Part shown: positions 6,311 through 41,482 of the stretch, piece by piece
Layout: each line of letters opens with the position of its first letter
Numbering within the stretch: position 1 is the first letter of the stretch
DNA from: an uncultured Gammaproteobacteria bacterium
GTDB lineage: Bacteria > Patescibacteriota > Microgenomatia > Levybacterales > UBA12049
Direction: 5' to 3'
Length of the DNA stretch: 64,000 bases
NCBI GenBank assembly: GCA_964553245.1
Contig: CAZKJM010000001.1
Span: forward strand, 209,806-273,805
The notes under the pieces: model-generated
The model's input: the letters and a program-made list of their open reading frames with translations, nothing else
Database searches by the model: none
What the model was told of the DNA's origin: nothing
Position numbers and translations under genes: made by a program

Positions 6311-6583
6311 TCATAATCCCATTCCTCCTTTGAGTAAAAATAGCATAATTGTTATCCCAAGACTTCCAATAAGTACATATTCTATCATAATTCTTACCGT
6401 TAAATCATGATTTATTTTGTGATGTAATAATCCCCAACCGATATAAAAAATCGTTGTTATTATAAATACAAGCATCTGAAGCTGTCTATTTGGTGAAGCA
6501 AAAAGAAAAAGTAAAAAACCCAATATTAAAAGGCTAACCAAAGAAAAATAATAACCTATATGCCTATCTGTTTTTTTCATCAT
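6311..6583 (-). CDS. small integral membrane protein (3 predicted TM helices), unknown function
   Basis: 90 aa, strongly hydrophobic; start overlaps the upstream CAP-protein stop. Confidence 0.5.
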   Translation of the reverse strand: MMKKTDRHIGYYFSLVSLLILGFLLFLFASPNRQLQMLVFIITTIFYIGWGLLHHKINHDLTVRIMIEYVLIGSLGITIMLFLLKGGMGL

Positions 6584-7497
6584 TAAATTACTATTCCGTT
6601 AGTTAATATTCCAATCATTATTAATAATAATCCCAAGAATAAAATATGGTCAATATTGTGCCCCACAAATCTAACTAATTTCCTTCGTTCAATTACAATC
6701 ATATCTAAAAGTAGTACTAAAATTAAAAGAATAATTATTGTTTTTGCTATATTGGAAGAAAGATTAATACTATCAATTAATGGTTCCTCTGAATTAATTT
6801 GCGCGGAACTTCTTTTAATTTCCGCGCCAAGCTTACTACCCGCAACTTGAGCCACATTTTGCACACTCGGCTGCTCTTCTGCTTTTACCAAGGATGATTC
6901 AATTTCTTTTTTTGTTTCCTGAGGCACTTGAGCCAATTCCCTGCTTCCAAACATTTCAACTACTAAAACAGTTTCTTCACCGTTTAATACTCCAGTATTA
7001 ACGGCAAAACCTATTTCTTTATAATTTGGGGATAAAATATTTTTTTTATGCGTCGGGCTTGCCATCCATGCATTTATTACATCCGTTGTATTAGTAAAAC
7101 CTCTCGCTAAATTTTCTCCTGCATAAACATAGTTATATCCGGCATTTTTAATAAATATCCATGGGGTTTTACCACTAGGTGATTCGTGAGCCCAGTAATT
7201 TTCGGAAAACATATCTATTGCTTTACCGGCAGCTGCATTCGACAATTCTTGATTAAGACTTAAAGGCGCTAATCCATTTGCTTGCCTTTGACTATTTGTA
7301 AGCAATAATAATTCATCGTAAGTAATATTGCTAGAAATTCCCAAAACAGAAGAAAAATTATTCCTTAAAAAGGAAAGCGCAAATCCTCCAATAAACAAGA
7401 ATATAATCAAGAATAAAATACTCTTGTGGTGAAGCAATCTCGCCCTGTAATTATTTGATTCATGAGGATAAAAATAATGAATCAAAAACTTCATCAT
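6583..7497 (-). CDS. membrane-anchored CAP/SCP/PR-1 domain protein
   Basis: N-terminal TM helix; CAP signature GENLARG...NAWMASPTHKKNILSPNYKEIGFAV; C-terminal hydrophobic segments. Confidence 0.65.
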   Translation of the reverse strand: MMKFLIHYFYPHESNNYRARLLHHKSILFLIIFLFIGGFALSFLRNNFSSVLGISSNITYDELLLLTNSQRQANGLAPLSLNQELSNAAAGKAIDMFSENYWAHESPSGKTPWIFIKNAGYNYVYAGENLARGFTNTTDVINAWMASPTHKKNILSPNYKEIGFAVNTGVLNGEETVLVVEMFGSRELAQVPQETKKEIESSLVKAEEQPSVQNVAQVAGSKLGAEIKRSSAQINSEEPLIDSINLSSNIAKTIIILLILVLLLDMIVIERRKLVRFVGHNIDHILFLGLLLIMIGILTNGIVI

Positions 7498-7540: not shown

Positions 7541-8470
7541 TCATTTGTAAGCTGGTTCTACTGATCTTAGGTTGCCGTTAATCGGGATCTTTAAAAAATG
7601 ACTTAAAGAATTTGCTATTGATAAACCAACTCTTAAACCGGTATACGAACCCGGTCCGGTATTAACTTTTATTTCTGATAGGTTATTTAAATTCATTCTG
7701 TGTTTTTTTAAGATTTTTTCAATCATAGGCAAAACCGCTTGCGCTTTTTGATAATTAATTTTTTGCTTATTAACATACTGCTTTTTCCTGATTTTTATTC
7801 CTACAGATATATATTCATTACTGGAAGTATCTATTTGCAAAATAACATTTTTTTCTTTTGACATTTCTTCGTCGGTTGGGGGATTAATATCTGATATTTC
7901 TATTGCTCCTTGTCTTAATATTTTCCAAGGAATTTTTGAACAATCGATAACCGTCGAAGGTGTTTTTAATTTACACTTTCCTTCCAATGTAAAATCTACT
8001 TTCTCTATTATTTTTAGGTCAATATCAGTTAACTCATAGGGAGTAGCTAAGCCCACAAAGTTTGCAGACGAACCGATTATTGGAACCCCAACTTTGTTTA
8101 TTAAATCTAAAATTTTTTTATTATTTGGCATTCTGACTCCTAAAGTATTTCCATTGCCTCTTATAAGCGGATTTATTTTTTCTTTTTCGCAAGCAAGGAC
8201 AATGGTTAATGCACCCGGCCAATATTTACTTATTAATTTTTCAAAAACTTCCTTAGGAATTTTTTTTAGATACTTACTTGCCATTTCTACGCTTCCCACC
8301 AAAACGGGAAAGGGTTGATTCTTTTTTCTACCTCTTATTTTTATTAATTTTTTAATTGCCCTGTCGCTATCTATCCTACAACCTATTCCAAACGCCGTGT
8401 CAGTTGGAAAAATTATTATTCCTTCGTTGCGAAGAACATCACTTGCTTTTTTTAAATCAAAATCTTTCAT
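7541..8470 (-). CDS. fusion protein: L-threonylcarbamoyladenylate synthase TsaC/YrdC domain plus TsaB (YeaZ) N-terminal-like domain
   Basis: N-terminal IIIFPTDTAFGIGC (YrdC/Sua5 motif). C-terminal ILQIDTSSNEYISVGI ... VNTGPGSYTGLRVGLSIANSL matches the TsaB/YeaZ N-terminal signature (GPGSFTGLRIG). Confidence 0.7.
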   Translation of the reverse strand: MKDFDLKKASDVLRNEGIIIFPTDTAFGIGCRIDSDRAIKKLIKIRGRKKNQPFPVLVGSVEMASKYLKKIPKEVFEKLISKYWPGALTIVLACEKEKINPLIRGNGNTLGVRMPNNKKILDLINKVGVPIIGSSANFVGLATPYELTDIDLKIIEKVDFTLEGKCKLKTPSTVIDCSKIPWKILRQGAIEISDINPPTDEEMSKEKNVILQIDTSSNEYISVGIKIRKKQYVNKQKINYQKAQAVLPMIEKILKKHRMNLNNLSEIKVNTGPGSYTGLRVGLSIANSLSHFLKIPINGNLRSVEPAYK

Positions 8471-8901
8471 TTAAATTCAATCTCTCTTTCGTTATCTTTT
8501 AAATATTTAAATTTTATTTCTGTTCTGTTTTTCGGCAATAATTTTCTTATTTTTTCTGACCATTCTATAGCGACTATATTATTTTTATCGTTGATAATTT
8601 CGTCTAATTCCATTCCTACAACATCGTTTTCGCTATCAATTCTATATAAATCAATGTGGTAAAAATATTTTGCTTTTATTTTTTTATTGTTAAGCTTATA
8701 GCTTCTTACAATTATAAACGTTGGGGAGATTATTCTATTCTTTATACCAAGTCCACTAACTAAACCTTGGACAAAAGTAGTTTTTCCTCCACCCAATTCT
8801 CCTGAAAGCGCAATAACTTCTCCTCCTTTAAGGGTACTAGAAAACTTTTCCCCTAATAATTGAGTTTCTTTGAAATTTTTTGTTATGACCATTTGACTCA
8901 T
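8467..8901 (-). CDS. tsaE: tRNA threonylcarbamoyladenosine biosynthesis ATPase TsaE
   Basis: LSGELGGGKTTFVQGL P-loop typical of YjeE/TsaE; 144 aa; overlaps the fusion gene by 4 nt. Confidence 0.8.
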   Translation of the reverse strand: MSQMVITKNFKETQLLGEKFSSTLKGGEVIALSGELGGGKTTFVQGLVSGLGIKNRIISPTFIIVRSYKLNNKKIKAKYFYHIDLYRIDSENDVVGMELDEIINDKNNIVAIEWSEKIRKLLPKNRTEIKFKYLKDNEREIEFK

Positions 8902-9761
8902 AAATTATTCTTTTTCTTTTTGTAAAAAAGATATCCAAGTATACCACAGATAACCATAAAGACTCCTCCAATTATGGTAAAAATAGGAAATAGATTATTT
9001 TTTCCTTTCACAATAACTTTTTCTATTTTTTTAGTTGGGGTCAGAGTTGCGCTTGAAGTTCCTATATTAATTATATTCTTACCCAAAACCAAAGTTTTCT
9101 TTGTAGTAACGGTTTTATAGATGTTATTAGATTTTACTGTAGTAGTGGTTGTAGCGAAAGTAAGTGTTGTAACTAATTTTGTTGTGTTACTACTCCTCGT
9201 CGGAGTTGGTGTTTTAGTAGGAGACTTTGTGTTGGTTGCGGTTGGTGTTTTAGTAGGAGACGGAGTAACTGTGAAAGTAGGTGTTAACGTAGGAGTTAAA
9301 GTCGGAGGCAAGCTATTCTCACAACCTTTCGTTGAATTAGACAAAACAGTAATCTCACCTACTCCGTCGGGCGATCTTCCAATTGAGACTTCAGATCCGT
9401 AATCGTTTTCATATTTATATTGATCAATAATCTCACCAGTTGGCGAAAACAAAACTACATAATCTCCATCATTATTTAAAAAAGAAGAGCATTCAAAGTA
9501 AGGATAAAGGAGATTTGAGTTATTTATTTCCGAAAGCGATTTTTTTGAACTACTTCCGGAATCGCTTGTAAAATCCGGGTCATCATCTAAGTAATAATTT
9601 AATAGATCTAGATTGTCAGGATTGTAAAATTCAACCCACTCTTTATTTCCTGTTAACGGATGAGGAAAAAATTCGTTAATTTTTAAGCTTGAAGCAAAGG
9701 AAATATCCGTAAAATAAATATTTAGAAAAAATAGTATTAAAATAAATAAAATTTTTTTCAC
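8898..9761 (-). CDS. secreted/anchored lamin-tail-domain (LTD) protein with Pro/Thr-rich linker and C-terminal TM anchor
   Basis: Signal peptide; LKINEFFPHP...EWVEFYN LTD start motif; PTLTPTLTPTFTVTPSPTKTPTATNTKSPTKTPTPT linker; C-terminal hydrophobic helix plus KKKKNNL. Confidence 0.6.
   Translation of the reverse strand: MKKILFILILFFLNIYFTDISFASSLKINEFFPHPLTGNKEWVEFYNPDNLDLLNYYLDDDPDFTSDSGSSSKKSLSEINNSNLLYPYFECSSFLNNDGDYVVLFSPTGEIIDQYKYENDYGSEVSIGRSPDGVGEITVLSNSTKGCENSLPPTLTPTLTPTFTVTPSPTKTPTATNTKSPTKTPTPTRSSNTTKLVTTLTFATTTTTVKSNNIYKTVTTKKTLVLGKNIINIGTSSATLTPTKKIEKVIVKGKNNLFPIFTIIGGVFMVICGILGYLFYKKKKNNL
9199..9262. repeat. 36-bp tandem repeat (2 copies, gttggtgttttagtaggagac core) encoding the PT-rich linker
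   Basis: Identical 21-mer at 9205-9225 and 9241-9261. Confidence 0.7.
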
Positions 9762-31156: not shown

Positions 31157-31633
31157 ATGAATAAAATTCTAAGTATAAAAAAAGCGCTAGACTTTTCCAA
31201 TGAATTTAACTTATTAAATAAAAAAATTGTGATCGTAGGTGGGTGTTTTGATATTGTTCACAAGGGTCATCTTGCTTTTTTAAAAGCTGCAAAAAAAAGA
31301 GGGGATAAGCTATTTATATTGCTAGAGGAAGATGAAAAAGTAAAAAAAATGAAAGGTAAAAATAGACCTATTCATAATCAGAAATCAAGAGCTAAAGTTC
31401 TTTCTCTTGTTAAAAACGTTGACTTTGTTGTTTTATTAAAAAATATGAAAAAAGATGAAGATTATGCTAAACTACTACTTCAAATAAAACCATATGCTGT
31501 TGCGATTACAGATGGAGACAGAAATAAAGATCGAAAAAAAATACAAGCAGAAAGCGCAGGAGCAAAATTAGTTACGGTTATAAGAAGGATGAAAAATATA
31601 TCAACTAGTGAAATATTAAAAAAAGTTATATGA
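31157..31633 (+). CDS. cytidylyltransferase-like nucleotidyltransferase (RfaE-II / TagD / RibL family)
   Basis: VGGCFDIVHKGHLAFL (HxGH) and KMKGKNRPIHNQKSRAKVL motifs; 158 aa. Confidence 0.65.
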   Translation: MNKILSIKKALDFSNEFNLLNKKIVIVGGCFDIVHKGHLAFLKAAKKRGDKLFILLEEDEKVKKMKGKNRPIHNQKSRAKVLSLVKNVDFVVLLKNMKKDEDYAKLLLQIKPYAVAITDGDRNKDRKKIQAESAGAKLVTVIRRMKNISTSEILKKVI

Positions 31634-32106
31634 AAAAAATAATAATTTCTTTTCTAATCCTTTTTATAGTTATACTTTTAATAACACTCAGCGGAAATAT
31701 TTTTGTAAAAAATCCATCATTTTTAAAACCTTCTGCGAGAATAACCATAAATAAACAAGTTTTTAATCTTTTACTTGCAAAAACCGCAAAAGAAAAACAA
31801 GTAGGTCTATCGCAAAAAAAATCCTTACCAAGCGATTACGGGATGGTTTTCGCTTTTGAAAAACAGGGTTATTATTCTTTTTGGATGAAAGATATGAAAT
31901 TTCCAATTGATATTATTTTTATTAAAAATAAAAAAATCGTAACTATTTACGATAGCGCTAAGCCCCCTTCTTCGAAAAACGAAAGCTTAATAATTTATCA
32001 ACCAACCGAAACAGCGGATACTGTCTTAGAAATAAACGCGGGACTTTCAAAAAAATATGGGTTTAAAAGAGGAATGGAAGTAAAATATGAAAATTTTGGG
32101 AGTTGA
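31630..32106 (+). CDS. DUF192-family protein (secreted/membrane-anchored)
   Basis: YGMVFAF...WMKDMKFPIDIIFI matches the DUF192 signature; N-terminal TM. Confidence 0.6.
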   Translation: MKKIIISFLILFIVILLITLSGNIFVKNPSFLKPSARITINKQVFNLLLAKTAKEKQVGLSQKKSLPSDYGMVFAFEKQGYYSFWMKDMKFPIDIIFIKNKKIVTIYDSAKPPSSKNESLIIYQPTETADTVLEINAGLSKKYGFKRGMEVKYENFGS

Positions 32107-33112
32107 AACAAGCTGCGACGAAACCTCGGCATCTGTAATCTTTGCAAAAAAAAATGATAAAAACGTTAAAATTTTATCTAACGTAATATCGTCTTCTTTG
32201 TCTTTACATAGCAAAACAGGAGGAATAATCCCAGAAGTCGCCGCAAGAGAACAGTTAAAATACATCTTACCTGTTATTAAAGAATCATTAGATAAAGCAA
32301 AAACAAAAATTGAGGAAATTAATGCAATAGCTGTAACAATCGGACCAGGATTAGTCGGGTCGCTTTTAGTAGGAATCGAAACGGCAAAAACAATTTCTAT
32401 GCTTTATAAAAAACCGATAATACCCGTCAATCATTTACATGGGCATATGTATGCAAATTTTATTAATAACGATCAAAATACTAATGTTAAATTTCCTGCA
32501 ATTATACTCATTGTATCAGGAGGTCATACTGATTTACTTTTAATGAAAGGGCACGGAAATTTTAAATGGCTTGGCGGAACCAGAGATGACGCAGCAGGAG
32601 AAGCATTTGATAAAATCGGAAGACTATTAAACCTACCCTATCCCGGAGGACCGTCTATAGAAAAAGCCGCTGAAAACGGAAATCCCGAATCCTTTGATTT
32701 ACCCCGCCCGATGATTGGATCAAAAGATTTTGATTTTAGTTTTAGCGGATTAAAAACAGCAGTTTTAAAAGAAACTAAAACAATAAAACAATATAATAAT
32801 AAAATAATCAGTGACTTAGCTGCATCAACTCAAAAAGCAATTATTGAAGTCCTAATTAAAAAAACAATAAAGGCGGCAACAAAATACAATGCTAAATCCA
32901 TTCTTTTATCCGGCGGTGTTGCCGCAAACCAGAGATTGAGAGATGAACTTGAATTATTTGCTATTCGCCATATGCCAAAAGCCAAAATTTTTTTTCCACA
33001 AAAATTTTTGTGTACAGATAATGCTGCAATGATTGCTACAGCCGCTTTTTTTAACCAAAATAAAGTTGAATGGAAAAAAATTACTGTTAATCCCGAGCTA
33101 TATTTCTACTAA
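32087..33112 (+). CDS. tsaD: tRNA N6-adenosine threonylcarbamoyltransferase TsaD (Kae1/Gcp)
   Basis: MKILGVETSCDETSASV, metal-binding HxxxH (NHLHGHMYA), LIVSGGHTDL, SGGVAAN motifs. Confidence 0.9.
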   Translation: MKILGVETSCDETSASVIFAKKNDKNVKILSNVISSSLSLHSKTGGIIPEVAAREQLKYILPVIKESLDKAKTKIEEINAIAVTIGPGLVGSLLVGIETAKTISMLYKKPIIPVNHLHGHMYANFINNDQNTNVKFPAIILIVSGGHTDLLLMKGHGNFKWLGGTRDDAAGEAFDKIGRLLNLPYPGGPSIEKAAENGNPESFDLPRPMIGSKDFDFSFSGLKTAVLKETKTIKQYNNKIISDLAASTQKAIIEVLIKKTIKAATKYNAKSILLSGGVAANQRLRDELELFAIRHMPKAKIFFPQKFLCTDNAAMIATAAFFNQNKVEWKKITVNPELYFY

Positions 33113-41386: not shown

Positions 41387-41457
41387 CGGGGAGTAGTTTA
41401 ACGGTAGAATGCGCGCATGGGGTGCGTGTGACCGGAGTTCAATTCTCCGCTCCCCGA
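41387..41457 (+). tRNA. tRNA-Pro (anticodon GGG), no encoded CCA
   Basis: 7-bp acceptor stem CGGGGAG/CTCCCCG; T-arm CGGAG-TTCAATT-CTCCG; anticodon loop AT-GGG-GT with G37; TATAAT at 41371-41376 just upstream. Confidence 0.7.
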
Positions 41458-41482
41458 CTAAAAGATAGCTACGGAATTAAGC

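Follow-up and report, generated by a model that had tools for sequence, protein, structure and literature searches.

N6-threonylcarbamoyladenosine at position 37 (t6A37) belongs to the small set of universal tRNA modifications, and the bacterial proteins that make it, TsaC, TsaB, TsaD, and TsaE, are an antibacterial target. The catalytic subunit TsaD, which moves the threonylcarbamoyl group onto A37, is active, like its relatives Kae1 and Qri7, only with a helical-bundle partner: bacteria supply TsaB, mitochondria another copy of Qri7, and the KEOPS complex Pcc1 (PMC6009658). In the solved TsaBD complexes, helices α1 and α2 of TsaB form a four-helix bundle with TsaD (PMC6009658), and TsaE, a competitor of tRNA, attaches to the TsaB-TsaD heterodimer and resets the enzyme (PMC6009658, PMC9654439). 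Here, we analyzed a 64-kb stretch of contig CAZKJM010000001.1 (hereafter the window), in which a single open reading frame (ORF) encodes the threonylcarbamoyl-AMP (TC-AMP) synthase TsaC joined to a TsaB-derived domain of about 100 amino acids, which we call mini-TsaB. A first, sequence-only reading of this DNA took the fusion to be the defining feature of a compacted t6A machinery. We found instead that the feature shared across the lineage, the Microgenomates within the Candidate Phyla Radiation (CPR, or Patescibacteria), is a tsaE-tsaC-mini-tsaB operon with a half-size TsaB: tsaC and mini-tsaB are split in 36 of 39 related loci and fused in only 3, while 133 of the 150 best database matches to mini-TsaB stand alone. 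Thus, the point of interest moves from the fusion itself to a half-size TsaB that extends across the superphylum and to the repeatedly erased boundaries between its gene, tsaC, and tsaE.

Two-domain TC-AMP synthases have been described before. Sua5/TsaC2 shares with the window protein its overall size, two-domain layout, and flexible linker; however, the second domain of the fusion is a TsaB lobe of the acetate and sugar kinase/Hsc70/actin (ASKHA) fold instead of a SUA5 domain. Because of this Sua5/TsaC2-like layout, databases name the fusion as a plain TC-AMP synthase (L-threonylcarbamoyladenylate synthase) and leave TsaB unmentioned; stand-alone minis are called TsaB in IMG and hypothetical protein in NCBI. 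Escherichia coli YrdC (190 amino acids), a single-domain type without SUA5, has the same full YrdC fold and family-invariant residues as the TsaC half of the window protein, which differs from it by the extra C-terminal, TsaB-derived domain. TobZ, HypF, and the pandoravirus protein TsaN (TsaD-TsaC-SUA5-TcdA) likewise join a YrdC module covalently to ASKHA machinery. Yet these proteins fuse the catalytic Kae1/TsaD itself, the sites being joined by an internal channel in the cases of TobZ and HypF, whereas the window protein places TsaC on a non-catalytic partner, so that coupling to TsaD would be indirect. On the transferase side, Pcc1 is a small subunit of ~80 to 90 amino acids that acts as the helical-bundle partner on the Kae1 N-lobe. 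Mini-TsaB would be its bacterial counterpart in size and role; in contrast, the two are unrelated in fold and ancestry, as mini-TsaB is a cut-down TsaD paralog.

Further fusions known in the t6A system are Kae1-Bud32, the YrdC-Kae1 type (TobZ, HypF, and TsaN), and TsaC-HemK. The fusions catalogued in the SyntTax survey (yeaZ::rimI::ygjD, yeaZ-hydrolase, and alr-yjeE) mark subunits of one complex, and none of them includes tsaC/yrdC (rimN); the survey describes gene clusters that include rimN as rare and notes that no direct interaction of TsaC was on record (PMC3571937). By native gel shift, E. coli YrdC was not seen to form a complex with YgjD, YeaZ, or YjeE. The reviews and the fusion catalogue contain no fusion of TsaC to either TsaB or TsaE, and our literature searches found no description of a TsaC-TsaB (YrdC + YeaZ) architecture. 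Among 8 million full texts, the searches turned up no paper linking t6A or TsaB with CPR/Microgenomates and none on a truncated TsaB. As far as we have seen, the architecture is thus undescribed, yet it is built of familiar parts, and the sequences are already in the databases.

The two halves of the fusion protein

The sequence-only reading had recognized a full YrdC/Sua5-type domain in the N-terminal part of the ORF, and profile searches bear this out. PF01300 (Sua5/YciO/YrdC) matches residues 12 to 188 along the full profile (positions 2 to 178; E = 1.5e-48, 165 bits against a cut-off of 25), and TIGR00057 (L-threonylcarbamoyladenylate synthase), with its cut-off at 123 bits, reaches 159. 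An AlphaFold2 model of the fusion, built on 119 homologs, has a mean predicted local distance difference test score (pLDDT) of 93.1 and a predicted template modeling score (pTM) of 0.69. It shows the YrdC α/β fold with a pLDDT of 95 to 98 across residues 10 to 190 of TsaC, followed by linker blocks at residues 191 to 210 with a pLDDT of 70 to 73. Foldseek superposed the N-terminal domain on E. coli YrdC (1hru) with a root mean square deviation of 2.2 to 2.3 Å over 178 residues and on 1k7j at 2.3 Å over 188 residues. T23, D24, T25, S135, A136, and N137 are invariant among the 119 homologs, and R46 and R48 are conserved in at least 90% of them; the window protein has all of these residues, together with the family-invariant R186 and G188. 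Going by YrdC/Sua5 structures, we take T23 to T25 (PTDT loop), R46/R48 (K/R-x-R), and S135 to N137 (S-x-N) to serve catalysis. With every family feature that can be read from the sequence in place, the TsaC half is predicted to be a complete and catalytically intact type 1 TC-AMP synthase.

The C-terminal part of the protein belongs to TsaB rather than TsaD. PF00814 gave a short match at residues 243 to 297 (E = 2.6e-12), so that both Pfam domains were detected in the fusion, and TIGR03725 (TsaB) aligned residues 210 to 297 with profile positions 1 to 88 of 212 (E = 4.6e-19). This domain scored 69 bits with TIGR03725 as compared to 28 bits with TIGR03723 (TsaD). When the C-terminal 105 amino acids were compared with the PDB, the best YeaZ/TsaB match had an E value of 3.5e-10 (3r6m, chain residues 4 to 92), while TsaD came at 2.8e-3. 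The His-x-x-x-His metal site of TsaD is not in mini-TsaB and would fall past the end of the domain. In the model, this domain fits the YeaZ/TsaB N-lobes of five species with a deviation of 1.2 Å over 89 to 90 residues (Foldseek; 4y0w, 3r6m, 1okj, 4ydu_C, and 6n9a_B, some of these chains coming from TsaBD and TsaB2D2E2 complexes). Its DSSP order, β1-β2-β3-α1-β4-α2 followed by a short β5, is that of the first ASKHA lobe, with α1 at residues 246 to 256 and α2 at residues 276 to 293. It thus keeps the strand-1 IDT(S) motif, α1, the GPGSYTGLR motif, α2, and the short β5. GPGSYTGLR corresponds to the GPGxxTGxR motif described for YeaZ (PMC2954210, PMC9654439); among the 119 homologs, S275, G278, and R280 are invariant, and G272, G274, and T277 are conserved in at least 90%.

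According to the sequence-only reading, only the N-terminal half of TsaB was present. The assignment to the N-lobe stands; however, a C-terminal EPxY motif has also been kept. A P-x-[YF] motif occurs within the last 35 amino acids of all full-length TsaB proteins compared (116 of 116; consensus LEPLYL), with E. coli TsaB ending in AEPVYLR (sequence checked against 4wq4_C), and within the final 12 amino acids of 92 of 119 fused proteins and 76 of 124 stand-alone minis. Because local alignment with hmmalign to a full-length TsaB hidden Markov model (HMM) left the mini tails unaligned, we infer homology of the tails from motif identity and from the published structure description. In Thermotoga maritima YeaZ, the first RNase-H-like domain consists of residues 1 to 100 and 160 to 193 and the second of residues 101 to 159; Pro188 and Tyr190 form a surface cluster with GPGxxTGxR, Asp7/Thr8, and the start of α1 (PMC2954210). 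Since the C-terminal EPxY of full-length TsaB is retained, mini-TsaB looks like the product of an internal deletion rather than a plain N-terminal half, with the second lobe and α5/α6 removed and the contributors to the first-lobe patch kept. The two-lobed TsaB architecture, whose truncated second lobe has ~60 to 115 amino acids, is absent, as the fusion ends 12 residues past profile position 88, and the second lobe is likewise lost in 133 stand-alone homologs of ~106 amino acids.

Compared with TsaB/YeaZ (231 amino acids in E. coli; 206 in T. maritima TM0874), mini-TsaB shares the first lobe with α1/α2, IDT(S/A), GPGxxTGxR, the C-terminal EPxY, and the genomic linkage to tsaE. At ~100 instead of 200 to 230 amino acids, it is without the second lobe, α5/α6, and the β6/β7 Arg/Tyr cluster, and part of the TsaE contact surface is gone. 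Unlike TsaB/YeaZ, which is encoded with rimI/tsaD, mini-TsaB is encoded after tsaC and in the window is fused to it. Three TsaB-like proteins, P0244 (159 amino acids), P0267 (156 amino acids), and P0266 (139 amino acids), are of intermediate size, and P0244 retains a KPFYLH motif behind a strongly reduced second lobe. These proteins may represent intermediates in the shrinkage from full-length TsaB to mini-TsaB.

The resemblance to Sua5/TsaC2 might be taken to mean that the target of the C-terminal domain is the TsaC to which it is joined, and that it regulates the TC-AMP synthase in cis, as a SUA5 domain would, rather than TsaD. The order and size of the parts are the same (~320 to 350 amino acids in Sua5/TsaC2), Sua5/TsaC2 proteins are the top Foldseek hits of the whole model, and the database name is that of the synthase alone. 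However, the Sua5 fit covers only the TsaC half (201 columns, 3.4 Å; ~20 Å for full-length alignments), and Pfam/NCBIfam searches found no SUA5 domain in the fusion, as the C-terminal domain is PF00814/TIGR03725, that is, an ASKHA TsaB lobe and not a SUA5 fold. Moreover, because of the low linker confidence and the pTM of 0.69, no fixed contact between the two domains is predicted, and in most relatives the domain is a separate protein. Regulation in cis is thus very unlikely.

Distribution of fused and split genes

The fusion is a genuine in-frame gene. The identical 309–amino acid protein is present on four contigs of 6 to 562 kb from NCBI/JGI, ENA, and Logan sources, and fused homologs form at least 120 clusters (the conservation counts use 119 homologs, down to 46% identity). 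The best 120 database relatives, at 46 to 80% identity, have both Pfam domains and a size of ~285 to 340 amino acids, save one form of 446 amino acids that includes TsaE as well. Two homologs are 80% and 78% identical, and at least 117 others are fused too, with linkers ranging from 0 to ~50 residues. Some of these proteins were annotated by NCBI under genetic code 11, and they come from metagenome-assembled genomes (MAGs) of Levybacteria, Woesebacteria, Microgenomates, and Patescibacteria. In principle, two genes could have been joined by a mistake in sequencing or assembly or in a frameshifted pseudogene: split relatives often overlap by ATGA, where an error of 1 nt could fuse tsaC and mini-tsaB, and a triple fusion (P0042) is known from one contig only. 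Recovery of the same protein from four contigs of several sources and the many fused homologs with differing linker sizes make such an artifact extremely improbable. The next gene, which encodes a CAP-domain protein, begins 43 nt past the fusion stop, so there is no frameshifted TsaB C-lobe downstream.

To place the fusion among its relatives, we used 39 full-length relatives with their flanks (loci of 2 to 21 kb) from GTDB species genomes of Levy-, Gottesman-, and Curtissbacteria and other Patescibacteria, and ran separate HMMs for the TsaC and TsaB halves on their stop-free ORFs. Fusion as in the window was confined to L001, L004, and L006; in the 36 other loci, the TsaB stump has an ORF of its own beside tsaC. 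There, a TsaC of ~195 to 210 amino acids ends at a stop codon and is followed by a mini gene of ~100 to 110 amino acids, which starts with ATG in 35 cases and with TTG in one. The split minis begin with M-x(2-6)-(I/L)-x-I-D-T, i.e., 2 to 6 residues ahead of strand β1, and in 13 of the 36 the mini start overlaps the tsaC stop (12 ATGA and 1 TTGA). In 34 of the 39 loci, a tsaE gene of the same orientation closely precedes tsaC, and 4 of the 5 others have less than 600 nt of upstream sequence. Because most relatives encode tsaC and mini-tsaB apart, the tether provided by the fusion is not essential to the lineage. Stop-codon read-through or an alternative genetic code, which might have reconciled fused database proteins with split GTDB loci, was rejected: in the 36 split loci, tsaC and mini-tsaB share a frame only 6 times, against a chance expectation of 12; each of the three stop codons is used; and each split mini begins at the expected N terminus with a start codon of its own.

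With residues 205 to 309 as the query, 1.84 billion representatives were searched exhaustively by HMMER; 8333 of them matched at E ≤ 1e-3, of which 250 reached E ≤ 1e-10. The stand-alone proteins among the best 150 representatives have 84 to 125 amino acids (median 106), and only 4 of the 150 carry a TsaC domain. The first ordinary full-length TsaB (207 amino acids) appeared near rank 147, at 1.7e-12, and with the nearest full-length TsaB (P0268) as the query, the hits were generic TsaBs below 40% identity. Even a remote stand-alone mini (32% identity) lies directly behind a 199–amino acid tsaC. One protein of the best 150, P0248 (284 amino acids), has mini-TsaB behind an AAA_33/KTI12-like P-loop kinase/ATPase domain and no TsaC; this domain might take the place of TsaE or be an unrelated partner. 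The Microgenomates-type tsaE-tsaC-mini-tsaB operon was also observed, at 40 to 55% identity to the window, in 17 GTDB records titled as uncultured Gammaproteobacteria (L001, L005-L007, L012, L018, L020, L021, L023, L025, L028, L030, L033, L034, L036, L039, and L067). Titled "MAG TPA_asm: uncultured Gammaproteobacteria bacterium", these records are almost certainly Patescibacteria, the label apparently being a placeholder or an error.

The boundaries between the three genes appear fluid. On a neighbor-joining tree of the concatenated domains (122 fused and 36 split proteins, ~300 columns, a quick method), fused and split forms interleave; parsimony requires at least 16 changes from a split root state, a count that is no more than indicative given that the fused forms came from a protein search and the split ones from GTDB. 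Because the genes abut or overlap by ATGA, small mutations would be sufficient for repeated fusion and splitting. One close pair in opposite states, L024 (split, with a 90-nt spacer) and P0082 (fused), is separated by a distance of 0.19; in their DNA, no single separating mutation could be identified, the linker and spacer being too diverged. The arrangements found are tsaE, tsaC, and mini-tsaB as three genes, which is the commonest; tsaE followed by fused tsaC-mini-tsaB, as in the window; fused tsaE-tsaC followed by mini-tsaB; and, once, all three fused. TsaE-TsaC in one stop-free ORF followed by a separate mini-TsaB was seen in Curtissbacteria (L009:9374-10579, 402 amino acids; L031:6500-7600, 367 amino acids). 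The TsaE-TsaC-mini-TsaB protein P0042 (L085:342-1682, Logan SRR29054609) has 446 amino acids and all three Pfam domains; its locus is syntenic with the window, with a CAP-domain gene and a nucleoside triphosphate (NTP) transferase gene downstream. As a single-contig case, this triple fusion may reflect a sequencing error.

The linker of the window protein may preserve a trace of its origin. Met203 lies six residues before strand β1, where split relatives have their start codon, and a Met is found in the linker of 19 of the 119 fused homologs. There is no clear Shine-Dalgarno sequence upstream of the Met203 codon. This residue may thus be a vestigial mini-tsaB start codon or an internal initiation site for free mini-TsaB. 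As Met203 occupies the start position of the split relatives, the sequence suggests that the window fusion arose via loss of the tsaC stop.

Mini-TsaB as a candidate partner of TsaD

The reading that we favor is that mini-TsaB is probably the TsaD partner in this lineage and that, in the window organism, it is predicted to be supplied as the C-terminal domain of TsaC. The TsaC domain would make TC-AMP from threonine, bicarbonate, and ATP. Helices α1/α2 of mini-TsaB would pack on the two N-terminal helices of TsaD and give the helical-bundle partner needed for TsaD activity and for tRNA/TsaE docking, and TsaE, if compatible with the shortened subunit, would reset the complex. With the two proteins fused, the ~18-residue linker would keep the source of TC-AMP by its user. 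TC-AMP is labile, and such a tether might therefore be helpful; since most relatives are unfused, it would be dispensable and confer at most a modest advantage. A need for proximity has been discussed by Jin et al.

Several observations weigh against this assignment. The TIGR03725 equivalog score of 69.2 bits is barely under the trusted cut-off of 69.3, as a match can extend over no more than 40% of the model; homology itself, with E = 4.6e-19, is beyond doubt. Conserved second-lobe residues of TsaB (T. maritima Arg112-Arg114 and Tyr119; PMC2954210) are absent from mini-TsaB. In the T. maritima TsaBDE complex, TsaE touches both lobes of TsaB (PMC6009658), and with loss of the second lobe part of the known TsaE interface is gone. 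The binding of the mini domain to TsaD is itself a prediction, and the biased sample behind the tree also counts here. Last, the window covers 64 kb (11%) of a 562-kb contig, and a full-length tsaB elsewhere would conflict with our reading.

Should a full-length TsaB be encoded elsewhere, mini-TsaB could descend from a duplicated tsaB and serve as an extra adaptor or decoy, which either brings TsaC, fused or co-translated, to TsaD or competes with TsaB. This would agree with the statement that TsaB and TsaD occur together in every bacterial genome (PMC9654439) and with the normal contact between TsaE and the second lobe of TsaB (PMC6009658), and the absence of tsaB applies to the window and related loci rather than to the whole genome. 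However, neither the 64-kb window nor ~0.6 Mb of related loci showed a second TsaB-like ORF, even beside tsaE and tsaD, the two usual sites of tsaB, and the nearest full-length TsaB came up only near rank 147 of the database search. In addition, CPR genomes are strongly reduced, and two TsaB paralogs would not be expected in them. We therefore regard a duplicate-derived adaptor or decoy as unlikely.

Alternatively, the mini domain could be a decaying remnant, with TsaD working as a Qri7-like homodimer and the fusion being a neutral read-through into a dead gene. Mitochondrial Qri7 indeed acts alone, as a homodimer formed via the same helical bundle (PMC6009658), and over half of TsaB has been lost. 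Yet the motif residues are invariant between sequences that are only 32 to 50% identical, and a stable size, own start codons, and the C-terminal motif are kept in hundreds of clusters. Furthermore, tsaE is kept throughout, and its product recognizes the TsaB-TsaD heterodimer but no homodimer (PMC6009658, PMC9654439). The remnant explanation accordingly has little chance of being correct, and mini-TsaB as the TsaD partner remains the reading that we prefer.

A broader proposal, which we put forward tentatively, is that in Microgenomates t6A synthesis the mini-TsaB of ~100 amino acids might be the sole TsaB, with a dispensable second lobe, and that the fusions might be evidence that TsaC docks on TsaBDE. 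Neither mini-TsaB nor the fusion overturns the known t6A mechanism.

Gene layout of the window and implications

The coordinates of the fusion gene, its parts, and its neighbors are given in Table 1. The translated fusion ORF contains IIIFPTDTAFGIGC, ILQIDTSS, and GPGSYTGLRVG. As the sequence-only reading had noted, the tsaE stop and the start of the fusion gene share 4 nt (ATGA). The identity of TsaE is further supported by TIGR00150 (117 bits; cut-off, 60), a Walker A motif (GELGGGKTT), and an SPTF motif. The same reading had put tsaD in a different operon, which we confirmed: an intact, full-length tsaD lies 23.6 kb from the fusion gene in a separate plus-strand cluster, and its product has the HLHGH metal motif (HxxxH) and the GPG, SGGHT, SGGVAAN, and CTDNAAM motifs. 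The order of this cluster is VanW-like, cytidylyltransferase-like, DUF192, tsaD, RmuC, and an AddA-like helicase-nuclease, with tsaD sharing 20 nt with the DUF192 gene. The usual partners of tsaD, tsaB and rimI, are not beside it in the window.

Table 1. Positions of the t6A genes, of the parts of the fusion protein, and of neighboring features in the window
Feature	Position	Strand	Remarks
TsaC-mini-TsaB fusion ORF	7541..8470	-	309 amino acids + stop; ATG start
TsaC/YrdC domain, residues 1-190	7901..8470	-	Type 1, without SUA5 domain; PF01300 and TIGR00057
Linker, residues 191-208	7847..7900	-	Lowest model confidence; sequence and size vary among homologs
Met203 codon (ATG) in linker	7862-7864	-	
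Mini-TsaB domain, residues 209-309	7544..7846	-	TIGR03725, AlphaFold2 model, Foldseek
GPGSYTGLR, TsaB signature GPGxxTGxR, residues 272-280	7631..7657	-	N terminus of α2
EPAYK C-terminal tail, residues 305-309	7544..7558	-	Conserved (V/E)-E-P-x-Y-(K/E)
tsaE	8467..8901	-	144 amino acids; PF02367, E = 1.7e-36, 125 bits
tsaD	32087..33112	+	341 amino acids; PF00814, E = 6.1e-91, 305 bits, profile 1-263 of 264
CAP-domain protein gene	6583-7497		Next gene past the fusion stop
Putative cell-surface protein gene	8898-9761	-	GTG start; 4-nt overlap with tsaE
DUF192 gene	31630-32106	+	
tRNA-Pro(GGG)	41387-41458	+	Sole RNA gene detected in the window

The gene that overlaps tsaE encodes a product with a signal/anchor-like N terminus, a long Pro/Thr-rich low-complexity stretch (PTLTPTLTPTFTVTPSPTKTPTATNTKSPTKTPTPT), a hydrophobic C-terminal segment, and a weak lamin-tail match (PF00932, 31.6 bits, under the cut-off of 34.3). 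The product probably resides at the cell surface, its gene being transcribed jointly with those for t6A. In the 64-kb window, scans for tRNAs and Rfam families detected tRNA-Pro(GGG), and beyond this no Rfam family reached its gathering score.

The finding bears on two unsettled points of t6A biology, namely, the role of TsaB beyond TsaD dimerization and the transfer of TC-AMP from TsaC to TsaD. A TsaB consisting of the first lobe only across the superphylum amounts to a natural deletion experiment toward a minimal functional TsaB, and the repeated fusions of TsaC to mini-TsaB and to TsaE supply structural and kinetic studies with naturally tethered constructs. Minis that score below the cut-off lead pathway reconstructions and completeness estimates based on TIGR03725, presumably one of the GTDB bac120 marker genes, to count TsaB as missing. 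If the mini form is indeed the only TsaB, the essential part of TsaB would be the helical-bundle surface together with the GPG/PxY patch, converging with Pcc1. If TsaC docks on TsaBDE, this would explain how labile TC-AMP reaches TsaD.

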